Below are positions 1 through 54,478 of a stretch of DNA of 64,000 nucleotides, one piece after another. Origin of the DNA: Octopus vulgaris (Eukaryota); NCBI GenBank assembly GCA_951406725.2, contig OX597828.1, positions 70,184,001-70,248,000 of the forward strand, read 5' to 3'. The notes under the pieces are model-generated. The model ran no database searches, had not been told where the DNA came from, and saw only the letters and a list, made by a program, of their open reading frames with translations. The translations under genes were made by a program, and so were the position numbers. Position 1 is the stretch's first letter, and the number at the start of each line of letters is the position of its first letter.

Positions 1-449
1 GAGGAACCAAGATGTGAAAGGCAAAATGTTGGTTTTTATGCTGCTTACCACCTTGATCTACATGAAATGCTTGCCAGGAATAAAAATTGGTAAATCTTAA
101 AAGTCAATGGACCGGTAATTCCTAAAGAGATATAGCCACGGAAACTTGTCAATATTGTGATATTAGAAGACATTTTGGTGCTTACCATTTCAACTATGTG
201 ATAATACATTTATGTTTTAGACTATTAGATTGTTTTACACACATAATCATCATCATCATATATGTACACTTGCTAACAAAGTTCTACATACAAGAATAAA
301 TTCTAAACAATAACACAGCCCCAAATTTAACCAATAAAAATTTCTCCAAGACACCTTTCCATAACAACCAACTCTAAAACCTAATTACCACTCCATTAAA
401 AAAAAACCTAATCAAGGAAGATTTTCACTCAATAGACACTATGCATCGT

Positions 450-489
450 AGTCTGATGATGGCTTAACTGACAAAACTTCAAAGTTGTT
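450..489 (+). ncRNA. Degenerate hammerhead remnant (GAAACTTCAAAGT family)
   Basis: AGT-CTGATGA-TGGCTTAACTGAC-AAAA-CTTCAAAG-TT. GAAA box reads AAAA. Same stem III as at 27918 and 62857. Confidence 0.4.
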
Positions 490-501
490 CAAGAATAGTA
501 A

Positions 502-534
<33 letters not shown>

Positions 535-794
535 CTACTAATATAGGATGAAGTTTTTTTACAGAAAAAAATTTCATCAAGAAAAAGTGGCAGCATATTA
601 AAATACCTTTAAAGGTTAGAATTATAAACAACTTATAAACAAGGGCAAAAGAAAATTAATTCTATGCCAATATGCTGATAACAGACTTTTAAATTGTCAA
701 TTTCCACATATCATTATATACCCACTACAGAAATACGTTGTGCTGAAATCGAGGAAAGCTAACCAACAGAATTTTTTTTTTTTAAAGTTCGTTA

Positions 795-853
795 TTTCTA
801 TATTGAATCAATTTCAGAATTAATCTCATAGATTTTTTCCTCATCAGTAGAAA
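795..853 (-). ncRNA. Type I hammerhead ribozyme motif (left arm)
   Basis: Minus strand: TTTCTA-CTGATGA-GGAA(AAAATCTATGAGATTAA)TTCT-GAAA-TTGATTCAA-TA-TAGAAA. 6 bp stem I, extended stem II, short stem III, AUA cleavage triplet. Confidence 0.75.
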
Positions 854-1342
854 ATACGATAAGAAATAAATGAAATACTTACATGCGCCCATGGAAAAAA
901 AAAAACGAAGCAAAAGTCATGGGTACATATAAGTACCCCAGATATATCTAAATATAAAATCCTTTGGTCAGCTTCAGCACACGTGTGAACTGTTCTCCAC
1001 CACAGCTTATAGTGGTTACCAGTCCCTATAGCGAATGCCCTTGTTTATAAGTTGCTTATAATTTTAACCTTTAAAGGTATTTTAATATGCTGCCACATTT
1101 TTTGATGAAAATTTTTTCTGTAAAAAAACTTCATCCTATATTAGTAGTAGAGTTATCACTATTCGCTATAGGGGCTGGTAACCACTATAAGCTGTAGTAG
1201 AGAACAGTTCACACGTGTGCTGAGGCTAACCAAAGGATTTTATATTTAGATATATCTGGGGTACTTATGTGTACTCATGACTTTTGCTTCGGCTTTTTTT
1301 TCCATGGGCACATGTAAGTATTTCATTTATTTCTATTTGTAT

Positions 1343-1401
1343 TTTCTACTGAGGAGGAAAAAATCTATGAGATTAATTCTGAAATTGATTCAATATAGAA
1401 A
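1343..1401 (+). ncRNA. Type I hammerhead ribozyme motif (right arm)
   Basis: TTTCTA-CTGAGGA-GGAA...TTCT-GAAA-TTGATTCAA-TA-TAGAAA. Differs from the left copy only at the freely variable N7 core position. Predicted cut after 1395. Confidence 0.75.
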
Positions 1402-3333
1402 TAACGAACTTTAAAAAAAAATTCTGTTGGCTAGCTTTCCTCAATTTCAGCACAACATATTTCTGTAGTGGTTATATAATAATATGTGGAAATTGACGAT
1501 TTAAAAGTCTGTTATCAGCATATTGGCATAGAAATAATTTTCTTTTGCCCTTGTTTTATAAGTTGTTTATAATTTTAACCTTTAAAGGTATTTTAATATG
1601 CTGCCACTTTTTCTTGATGAAATTTTTTTTCTGTAAAAAACTTCATCCTATATTAGTAGTATATATATATATATATACTACTATATATATATATTACGGA
1701 GATGTACTCGCATAGCAAGTGATTTGATCTGAGATCGTGTGCTGGAACGAAAACAATTGCAGCGTGGAAGGTGTTTGTAAGCCATTTAAGAAACACACAA
1801 AAGCCGTTCGATTCACTTCAACATTTAAGTTCAACATTTACACTTCAACATTTACACTCATCACAGGTGCACTTTATGGATCTGAGTGAAACTAAGCAAT
1901 AATGTAGCTTTACATTTTTTTTTTAAATAACACAGAAAACTTTGGGAGAAATTTGGTTGCTATTTTTAGCTGGTTAAGTGTCACAGCAACTCATCGTTTA
2001 TACTGTTGTGGCACTTAGTCTATAGCTAAGGCATGATGATGATTATCATCATCATCATCCTCATCAACAACATCTTCCCTTGACACCTGTCTTTCATGCT
2101 TGCATGGGTTGGATGCTTTGACAGGATCCTATAAGTCAGAGGACTTGCCATGCTCCAGCTGAGCCACATACACCCAGCATGGTCTAGCTGTGTTTGTGGT
2201 AAATAGACACAACTGGAAGTGAAGTGATGAACTACTGAATTCTACATAACACTAGACACAGATGTATTGGTCTCCACTGTCAGCAGTGGGAGTACTGTGT
2301 AGCTGATGAGTGTTTTCTTCATTTTTAATGAGCTAAATTTAATCGGTTTGCTATCTTGTTAATTACCATAAAGTTGGAAGCTTTCATTGGCGCCATAGTG
2401 AAAACGCTTACGGTTCATATTTACAGGAAAGACATGCTAGAACTCTATCACACCATCACACCGTCACACCTTCCTGGTGAATTCTGTTGCCGTGTGAATG
2501 TTCTCTGCACATTTAACAAGAGGAAGAAGAACACAAAGTGGCAGAGTAAGGAATGGGTGGCAGAACAATACGTGAGGAAGTATAATGATGCTTGATGTTA
2601 TACGTGAAAGTGAAACTAGGAGACATACATGTTTTGAGGAAATCAACGAAAATAAACAACAACAACAACAAAACAGAAAGGTAGGGTGGAGGTTGGGGTG
2701 GGGAGTGGGGTTGAGGTGGGGGGAGTAAAGTTTATCTCCAATAATTTTGAATTTGGCATTTAGCTAATCCCTTTAATGTTTTTGATATGTTTTAAATAAT
2801 TAATGATGCCTGGAAAATTCGTTGTATAACAAATAATTAGTTATTATTTGCCAACCTGTTTTCATTTCCTCGGTTTTGTTGCTAGAAAAATTTTCAGTTT
2901 AAAAGATTAATGAACAGAATGAAGAGAGCTGTGACTTACATAATAGCAAAGACTCGTTAGTTTGATGAAGTTAGCCTCAAAACTCATTCTCTCGTCTTCG
3001 TTCAACAGAGAAATAATCAATGACTGTATATTTTAAACTGTTTTTTTCTCCCCTTTTCTTTGCATTTCATCTACTTTCCTCCTCTCCTCCGTTTCCCCCC
3101 CCCCCTACATTTTGCAATCAATCTATGTTTCTCGTGACCTGACTGCCTCATTATATATACACATACTGACAAGCACATATATATACTGGAGTTCATTATA
3201 CACCCACAAACCCATACGGCACACAGCTTGTTATACGCCCACAAACATGTATACAGCACATGTGTAGAGCTTATGAAAATGCTAATGCAAACACAGGAGA
3301 AAGTTGCAGACATCGATTGTACCGTTCGCTGCC

Positions 3334-25704: not shown

Positions 25705-25776
25705 TATATGAATTTTTTGTGTAAAGAGATAAAAAAACCAAGGCTGTATAGATATTAGAGCATTTATAAATAGAAG

Positions 25777-25831
25777 GTCTTACAGCTGTTTCTAGAATAT
25801 TAATTAATAATAATATCCCTTCATCAGAGAC
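25777..25831 (-). ncRNA. Minimal type I hammerhead ribozyme with palindromic stem III (CAGCTG)
   Basis: Minus strand: GTCT-CTGATGA-A-GGGATATT(ATTATTAATT)AATATTCT-A-GAAA-CAGCTG-TA-AGAC. Lies within a ~210 bp element (25708-25920) between (TA)n tracts. Confidence 0.8.
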
Positions 25832-26284
25832 GGTGTGAGAGGAAAAGTTAAGTCATAGTTAGTTTGGTCTGTCTATAGCACTTATTCAGCACTTTGGGTC
25901 TCAATGACACCATTATCTCTTATATATATATATATACATGTATGTATGTATGTATATGATGTGGCAATGCTTCAACAAGTAAAAGCTCTCAATCAGCTGA
26001 GAGAGTAAAAAATAATCTTAAAAAGAAAAATCACAAATCTTGTAAATACAGCTACCCAGGGTTTCCTGGTTGAAATAATAATTTATTCTGCCATTTATCA
26101 AGCTGAAAACAAGACTGTTTATCAGTTGTCGGTTGAGCAGATAATGTTTAAACAAGAGAGGCTTGTAAAGAAGAAAGCAAAAGGGAAAAACCTCATTCCT
26201 TGTCTTTGTGTATTCATTGTGTTTAAAATATGTTCAGTGTGTATATATATGTACACACATACATATATGTTTGTATGTATATGT

Positions 26285-49208: not shown

Positions 49209-49790
49209 ACAGGCATGTCAGAAGTAAATACACACCCTTGTAATCATTAGAATTTATTTAAATCTGAAATTATACATTCAAATTATTTATTTATTATCAT
49301 CATAATGTGAATATCTAATATTTAGTAGGCATGCCCTTTGCATTTTTCAATGCAAGGACCCTATTAGGCATGCTGCTGATCAGATGATAAACATTCTCTT
49401 GAGGAATTTCTTACCAAGTTTCATGTGGTAATCTCAAAAAGTCTGACTTTGAAGATGCTTTCTTGTTCTTCTTACAAAGTGACCTGTCCATTATACCCCA
49501 GAGGTGTTCTATAGGGTTTGTATCTGGTGATTGACTTGGCCATGGAAGCTTTTTAATGCCATTCTCTTCCAACCAGTCTTGGGTCTTTTTAGCCGTGTAA
49601 CAAGATGCCCCATCTTCGAAGACCATTGGAAGGAGTCTTTTCTGCAATATGGACTCATATTTATCTGAGCTTAGGTTGCCCTCACACTCCACCAGCTCTG
49701 ATTGGCCATTGCTCCAAATTGCTCCCCAGACCATCACAGAATAACCGCCATGTTTCATTGTGGTTTTTTGTCTGTTTTTTTTTGTAGTTT
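49209..49790 (-). mobile_element. Tc1-family DNA transposon 3' half (decayed DD34E transposase + TIR)
   Basis: KHGG.SVMVWGAI, (Q)DGA..., WPSQSPD.NPIEHLW motifs. Tc1-like TIR CAGGCATGTCAGAAGTAAATACACACCC at about 49210. Confidence 0.9.
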
Positions 49791-49829
49791 CAGCTCAGAG
49801 CTGCAGCCTTGCATTCATACATTCGTACA

Positions 49830-54040: not shown

Positions 54041-54092
<52 letters not shown>

Positions 54093-54152
54093 CAGGATGA
54101 GATTAAAAAAAACCAAGAATGTGAAGGTTTTCAGAATATTTATAAAGAGAAG

Positions 54153-54200
54153 GTCTTACAGCTGTTTCTAGGATATTTTATATATCCCTTCATCAGAGAC
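54153..54200 (-). ncRNA. Minimal type I hammerhead ribozyme, CAGCTG family (second copy)
   Basis: Minus strand: GTCT-CTGATGA-A-GGGATAT(ATAAA)ATATCCT-A-GAAA-CAGCTG-TA-AGAC. Element 54090-54460 is adjacent to (TA)n. Confidence 0.8.
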
Positions 54201-54478
54201 GGTGCGAGAAAATGTTTAAGTAATAGTTATAATAGAGAAGATATGAAATACAGAGTGAAGTGTAGGAATGAAAACAGACATGTGATACGTAAAGATATTG
54301 TATTTGCAGTTCTATTACTTAAGCAGAATGGTGTGGTGTATATGTAAGTTTCCTGTACCTTGTGTGTGAGTTCCAATGGTGTTTATAATTGGTCATTCCA
54401 AGCATAGAGTATTGTAAAGGGTGTTATTCAGTCGAGGGTTTTTTTTTAAGTGACTTAAAATTTACACACATACATATA

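Follow-up and report, generated by a model that had tools for sequence, protein, structure and literature searches.

The window, by which we mean the whole stretch of 64,000 nucleotides of Octopus vulgaris DNA that was analyzed, carries near its left end a palindrome built from copies of one 511-nt unit. The features of the locus are as follows.

502..532, no strand: left (TA)n target tract (tandem repeat of period 2 at 502-534)
533..1036, minus strand: inverted, 5'-truncated copy of the unit, unit 11-511 (blastn and alignment)
795..853, minus strand: type I hammerhead of the left arm, N7 = U, pair G10.1-U11.1, predicted cut after 801
1036..1149, plus strand: partial tandem copy, unit 396-511, pLTR-like, before the full unit
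1151..1661, plus strand: one complete 511-nt non-coding unit
1314..1319, plus strand: GTAAGT block, a possible splice donor, directly upstream of the hammerhead and present in all related families
1343..1401, plus strand: type I hammerhead of the right arm, N7 = G, pair G10.1-U11.1, predicted cut after 1395
1572..1661, plus strand: optional 90-nt tail, unit 421 to 511 (the two preferred 3' ends)
1662..1694, no strand: right (TA)n tract (tandem repeat 1660-1694)

The initial annotation had described inverted arms of about 500 bp in a (TA)n tract, each holding the same 59-nt hammerhead and differing from the other at many sites outside it, and the alignment and repeat tracts agree with this description. 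Aligned pairwise, the arms (533-1036 on the minus strand against 1161-1661 on the plus strand) agree in 478 of 510 columns and have 23 substitutions and 9 gapped columns, and blastn finds them 94% alike. From left to right, the palindrome consists of an inverted unit 11-511, then unit 396-511 and then unit 1-511. The center (1036-1149) is a third copy of the unit's last 116 nt, in direct orientation to the right arm, and overlaps the left arm by 1 nt (T1036) at the inversion junction. Because the center is a third, partial copy, the layout of inverted copy, partial tandem and full unit is that of a textbook insertion of a Penelope-like element (PLE). Both outer ends of the palindrome are the unit's own 3' end; on the left arm this is the "long" 3' end, and the tail is found on both sides (left: 533-622). 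Within the tail lie a short hairpin, ACC..GGT at 1578-1589, and the block ATGCTG(G)CCA at 1598-1606, both common to distant sister families. GC content in the palindrome region is 0.31. The right (TA)n tract is interrupted at 1676-1683 by TACTACTA, identical to the 8 nt with which the left end begins, which is possibly an aborted start or a target duplication. The unit was also considered as an intron, from GTAAGT at 1314 to an AG near 1587, and this reading was rejected, as no spliced copy was found in the 113 loci described below and no such joint in public contigs.

In the right arm, the hammerhead is composed of a 6-bp stem I (1343-1348/1396-1401), the core CUGANGA at 1349-1355, a stem II of 4 bp, internal loop and 5 bp followed by GAAA at 1381, and a stem III of 3 bp past A15.1-U16.1; the cleavage triplet AUA ends at 1395, the predicted cut. 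The left-arm hammerhead scores 94 bits with the family covariance model, whose alignment includes that sequence. Rfam returned no match at gathering score in the whole window, and 12 weak matches in positions 1-3000, with no hammerhead family among them. Free folding was rejected as support for the motif, since the sequence folds freely without it (z 0.0 to -0.9). As a monomer, the hammerhead is predicted to be marginal, at -1.4 kcal/mol against -9.2 for the best fold and with pair probabilities of at most 0.06. Its near-palindromic stem III is predicted to pair with itself at -6.7 kcal/mol, which would agree with the dimer model of these ribozymes outlined in the accessible text of PMC4209133.

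As judged from the sequences, the motif is supported by covariation rather than by Rfam. Sister families were found via loose ends in public contigs; the nearer ones are about 67-80% alike in their aligned parts and give 2,246 pattern hits, and a more distant one gives 1,192. The covariation set comprised 29 sequences of the 511-nt-unit family and the nearer sisters, which amount to about four lineages rather than 29 events. In this set, 95.7% of cells were paired compared with 29-47% in slid controls, and 13 of the 21 hammerhead pairs had changed on both sides, across stems I, II and III; further pair types showed no excess over shuffles in the same set. These compensatory changes between sister families indicate that the hammerhead motif is real. 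Furthermore, in 28 loci not picked by the core pattern, the stems differed at 1.9% of positions compared with 4.0% elsewhere (p 0.001). The core differed at 2.7% (11 changes over 407 positions) compared with the same 4.0% (p 0.24), and an intact core was absent in 7 of these loci. The motif is thus maintained in the source lineages and decays in the copies.

It was also claimed that the hammerheads of the two arms differ at N7 alone. The alignment agrees (843 T, 1353 G), although the further suggestion that this is a sign of selection on the present copy found no support. Taking the 23 substitutions over 501 columns as the background rate, the probability of no difference in the 58 other hammerhead positions is 0.065, and that of at most one in 59 is 0.24, both within chance. 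The two arms also have a C-to-T change at 1380/816 in common, which turns the family's G-C pair (C in 31 of 34 copies) into G10.1-U11.1. Since G-U and A-U are also present at this pair in sister families, the change need not be disabling.

Elsewhere in the window, the family covariance model gave no other copy. A different hammerhead family is represented by two truncated copies, both ending in (TA)n, at 54090-54300 and 25710-25870 on the minus strand; it has a CUGAUGA core and a palindromic stem III (CAGCUG), no similarity to the 511-nt unit, and a 21-nt motif with 388 exact hits in the genome. Just left of the left TA tract, CTGATGA and AT-rich sequence at 463-500 may be the decayed end of another element; as a hammerhead remnant it was rejected, as it fits neither the full core nor the fold. 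A 127-aa frame at 49414-49794 on the minus strand shows an apparent resemblance to a fragment of a Tc1/mariner DDE transposase.

Searching the animal's own 2.8-Gb genome with the 511-nt unit gave 2,294 candidates, of which 40 were scored and yielded 94 matches. The exact core pattern had 228 hits in this genome against 0 for its control, and a wider clan pattern had 2,125 against 7. The unit is therefore present in at least hundreds of copies, and probably thousands. Our literature search returned no paper on a 511-nt hammerhead family; Repbase, Dfam or the supplements of papers may already list it. We examined 113 distinct loci, 29 obtained by similarity (the present one included) and 84 among the first 100 pattern hits listed, with seven duplicate loci left out. 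It is important to consider that this sample is biased, as the 29 resemble the present copy and the 84 were picked for an intact core pattern. The layouts were head-to-head at 41 loci, tandem only at 35 and solo at 37; thus, the inverted form does recur among paralogs, as the initial annotation had proposed to check. The head-to-head share was 11/29 in the similarity-picked loci and 30/84 in the pattern-picked ones, a tandem piece was present in 65 of the 113, and 72 had no inverted arm. Both arms contained a hammerhead region in 14 of the 41 palindromes, with both cores intact in 9 (the present one counted); two hammerhead regions on the same strand occurred at 4 of the 113 loci, and two intact same-strand cores at 2. 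Arm lengths ranged from 26 to 822 nt among 154 arms, the maximum being 1.6 units, and in the 113 loci the 5' ends were spread across the whole unit. These results indicate that the palindrome is an ordinary decaying copy of a very common non-coding hammerhead repeat family.

The same data bear on whether the palindrome is a fold-back artefact of assembly. Long palindromes are prone to fold-back, and the locus is known from the assembly alone; nevertheless, 32 of the 510 aligned columns distinguish the arms, which have undergone CpG-type decay independently, the center is a third copy with changes of its own, and 40 other loci have the same layout at different breakpoints. An artefact is thus exceedingly improbable.

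The outer 3' ends concentrate at two sites 90 nt apart (unit 421 and 511). Among 154 ends, 64 lay at unit 505-511 and 52 at 413-428, that is, 116 at the two sites. A (TA)n repeat adjoined 57/64 and 47/52 of these, respectively (104/116), and 13 of the 38 ends lying elsewhere. Both ends fell at preferred sites in 19 of the 41 palindromes, and the other 22 had at least one end elsewhere. The 19 classed palindromes comprised 17 short/long pairs, 1 short/short and 1 long/long (p 0.0004), and the present copy is the sole long/long palindrome among the 41 inverted loci. As side observations, extra GTA repeats (1-10) precede the TA tract in 8 of 56 long ends (L006, L016, L021, L026, L046), which suggests slippage when reverse transcription begins, and different PLE-type families are often found end to end in one TA tract as separate insertions (L050/L062, L056/L061, L020, L169).

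The identical ends of the present copy in a TA tract would also be expected of a DNA transposon of the MITE or foldback type whose terminal inverted repeats measure 500 bp. However, two long ends occur at only 1 of the 41 inverted loci, no inverted arm is present at 72 of the 113 loci, the arms measure anything from 26 to 822 nt, and fixed inverted termini were not found on all full copies. Moreover, the hammerhead covaries, and together with the paralogs this contradicts the counter-case named at the outset, a family of DNA transposons with terminal inverted repeats and no conservation of the hammerhead. We consider the probability of such an element practically negligible.

The divergence of the arms provides information on how the palindrome arose. 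The distance between them is 0.044, below all 78 comparisons with other loci, and in every one of 17 palindromes whose arms overlap by at least 150 nt, the arm-to-arm distance was smaller than the median distance to other copies. As the arms are mutual closest relatives, a single event from one template lineage is indicated. Relative to the family majority, each arm has 13 substitutions, and 7 of the 26 are of CpG type; the present copy would accordingly have undergone neutral decay of about 2.5% per arm after insertion. A palindrome made in two steps, through a later insertion of an opposite copy or through rebuilding of one arm by fold-back repair or gene conversion, would explain the long/long ends seen at 1 of 41 inverted loci, and conversion could also give the C-to-T change found in both arms. 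On the contrary, there is no TA tract between the arms, the 1-nt junction overlap is within the range of other junctions, both arms are equally far from the family majority, and an independent second insertion is not expected to be the closest relative of the first copy. We therefore hold a two-step origin to be improbable.

Our preferred reading, to which we assign a probability of about 0.86, is that the palindrome is one insertion of a non-coding hammerhead family, copied from RNA and placed in a TA repeat by the enzymes of a PLE. PLE insertions, according to the accessible text of PMC8557442 and PMC3846280, combine a partial tandem with an adjacent inverted, 5'-truncated copy, often have the tail at one end, which is 30-40 nt long, and target (TA)n. 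The family shows the partial tandem, the variable 5' truncation, the head-to-head inverted copy, the type I hammerhead and the (TA)n target; the optional tail at one end is also seen in the family (17/19), though it measures 90 nt and the present copy has it twice. Thus, the recurring inversion (41/113 loci) and the covariation of the hammerhead agree with the proposal in the initial annotation of a non-autonomous version of the inverted-pLTR structure of PLEs. A target-site duplication is not readable inside (TA)n. Against the PLE reading, the short/long rule is broken here, which may reflect a second priming at the same site, conversion between the arms or two events.

Under the PLE reading, the endonuclease would cut both strands within the TA tract, and each DNA end would serve as the starting point for reverse transcription at an internal site of the RNA, an uncut tandem or a circle. 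One side would yield a cDNA of 500 nt and the other one of 625 nt, before both were joined head to head. The ribozyme would serve the RNA cycle of the family, as a dimer or with the help of protein, rather than the present locus. Several of these steps have a counterpart in work on a purified PLE protein, which cuts and extends both DNA strands on an uncut RNA template, and whose two internal start sites on the RNA define the tail (PMC11167929).

Comparison with described systems locates the family more precisely. As in the endonuclease-positive PLEs, so far as they are covered in the accessible text of Craig et al. 2021 (PMC8557442) and Arkhipova et al. 2013 (PMC3846280), a full unit follows a truncated tandem and an inverted 5'-truncated copy, the tail is mostly one-ended, the targets are (TA)n and a type I hammerhead lies in the repeat. 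Unlike the elements in those portions of the two papers, the 511-nt unit has no RT or GIY-YIG frame, its tail is 90 nt instead of 30-40, and the present copy has the tail at both ends. MRC1 of Chlamydomonas, as presented in the accessible part of PMC8557442, is similarly non-coding, has pLTRs and head-to-tail copies and depends on a PLE in trans; derivatives of this type share 3' sequence with a known autonomous family, whereas no alignable partner was found for the 511-nt unit. In the anole Poseidon element PAc (Frangieh et al. 2024, PMC11167929), two internal starts that define the tail fit our two end classes, and the model also fits in that both strands are cut and extended, the targets are AT-rich and the RNA template is uncut. 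PAc, however, is autonomous and its start sites are close together within the ORF.

Animal non-LTR retrozymes are the other group of interest, and have been proposed as non-autonomous PLE derivatives in the accessible text of PMC7229834 and of Li, Clavereau and Pollet 2026 (bioRxiv 10.64898/2026.07.22.740005). The family resembles those covered in the available sections of Cervera and de la Pena 2020 (PMC7229834) in its short, AT-rich, non-coding unit and its type I hammerhead with a short stem III, and 511 nt falls within the retrozyme range of 51-972 bp given in the same portions of PMC7229834 and the preprint. Unlike retrozymes as portrayed there, the family occurs mostly as dispersed 0.5-1.6-mers rather than multimeric arrays. 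The present locus, with one hammerhead per strand, does not have the "two consecutive units" that an active retrozyme should have under the rule in the accessible text of the preprint.

Lacking an ORF with RT and GIY-YIG, and with a longest ATG frame of 45 codons even when read as a circle, the 511-nt unit is, by its sequence, not an autonomous PLE. The genome does contain two young coding PLE families. The first is a two-ORF PLE whose 784-aa frame matches RT and GIY-YIG and is overlapped by an ORF1 of about 420-440 aa (L154:904-9582; L061:1781-4131, minus strand). It is very young, with dozens of protein-identical copies, and has the hammerhead core UUGAAAA, a compensatory U3-A8 form, in all copies seen; at L154, an inverted copy, a partial pLTR and a full unit extend over 8.7 kb. 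The second is a Hydra-like PLE (L062:6503-8564, minus strand; L250-L279), which has the Hydra-clade CxCX5C linker and no Pfam match, and is also very young, with a 2.59-kb tandem period, a frame of up to 717 aa, a hammerhead core that reads CCGAAGA (U4C) and a tail of 66 nt. Its short end, TTGTATA, resembles that of the main family, and a CCT..AGG hairpin then follows in both. All 7 of its resolvable head-to-head arrays had a short and a long end (30 loci fetched; an eighth array was unresolved). Coding PLEs of the genome thus show the same layout and end rule as the 511-nt family.

A partner that shares the unit was not found among the elements searched. The ends of the two young coding families do not align to the 511-nt unit, no PLE frame was continuous with a unit copy in the loci screened, and no coding element sharing the unit appeared in the two-ORF PLE, the Hydra-like PLE, the window's other hammerhead family or the two sister-family pattern sets. 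Candidates for PLE proteins number tens of thousands in the genome, of which the best 102 and the best 146 were scored, and tblastn of three PLE proteins against the window gave no hit.

The distant sister family mentioned above, a third non-coding one (L169:570-1420; L280-L309), has a period of about 480 nt, is laid out in the same way (inverted, partial and full), varies between C and U at core positions 3-4 and contains the same tail block. At least three diverged hammerhead families of 480-510 nt (about 70% or less alike) would then share the hairpin and block within a 90-nt tail, and we offer, as a tentative and rather doubtful idea, that this is the recognition signal for a dimer of a Hydra-clade PLE protein, which would prime the two DNA ends at two different RNA sites and so bring about the short/long rule, the long/long pair seen here being a symmetric misfire. 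If this were true, the family would be a minimal 500-nt substrate for studying PLE inversions.

The nature of the template was approached through the 5' ends and through RNA-like data, the latter being unstranded assembled contigs of four public runs, presumed to be RNA and derived from many paralogs. None of the 154 5' ends lay within 3 nt of the cut site (unit 243-249), where about 2 would be expected if ends were even, in a sample biased to intact cores, and cleaved linear RNA was rejected as the usual template on this ground. Together with the lack of any arm longer than 822 nt, this implies a template that was uncut or circular, and the data favor neither. A circular RNA made by the ribozyme, with reverse transcriptase running round it as in the retrozyme cycle, is a variant of the PLE reading that we find possible, though not the likelier form. 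Consistent with a circle, the arms run through the unit junction and an intact cut site, the tandem junction (1661->1153) is present in contigs of all four presumed RNA runs, which cover the unit, and type I hammerhead repeats of other animals make circles, according to the accessible text of PMC7229834. However, a transcript of the partial tandem explains the arm lengths equally well, only 4 of the 113 loci have two same-strand hammerhead regions, and an anole PLE inserts in vitro without needing hammerhead cleavage (PMC11167929). Contig ends at the predicted cut (1395), found in 3 of 32 listed contig pieces from three studies, were set aside because a family indel near 1365 makes a graph branch that ends contigs built on 31-letter words at that position.

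The same palindrome had been proposed to act as a switch, in which the RNA either cleaves itself or folds into a duplex of about 500 bp that masks the ribozyme. The predicted folds of read-through transcripts of the two strands (-773 and -782 kcal/mol, with 1349-1395 pairing with 847-801) agree with the duplex. The alternation does not follow: since transcription of either strand reaches the antisense arm first, the head-to-head geometry would mask read-through RNA nearly always. RNA begun within the element would lack the ribozyme's antisense, a matter of geometry, it would seem, and not of a device. Two intact cores, the predicted duplex and the fact that both arms changed at the tolerant N7 position might nonetheless suggest a selected RNA device toggling between self-cleavage and a 500-bp substrate for ADAR or Dicer. 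However, 9 of 14 comparable palindromes (in a core-biased sample) have both cores intact, and 6 more inverted pairs with two intact cores appeared among the first 100 of the 2,125 clan hits listed; the N7 difference is within chance; the core decays in copies not picked for it at a rate that does not differ from the rest of the unit; and no host gene is evident among the long frames of the window. A purpose-built RNA switch is consequently unlikely, and one under selection at this locus highly improbable. The long duplex would be a by-product of read-through transcription.

Signs of editing were weak. In the unstranded contigs, A>G and T>C places were about equal (13-16 and 14-17) and uninformative on editing. 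Genomic copies in sense orientation had 18.0 A>G against 14.2 T>C per 1000 (p 0.03), an excess too weak to accept editing of the template RNA, and the changes of the arms are mixed in type (A>G 5 of 26).

These results emphasize that the palindrome matters little as a locus, as it is one of probably more than 100 such palindromes, since the first 100 clan hits listed already include 6 inverted pairs. Seen as a family, the repeat contributes counts (17/19 here and 7/7 in the Hydra-like PLE) on how the tandem and inverted insertions of PLEs and their one-sided tail arise, and it ties a retrozyme-like repeat to the marks of PLE insertion. Cephalopods edit their RNA heavily, and in such an animal these palindromes, judged by their sequence, could plausibly be a bulk source of long double-stranded RNA.
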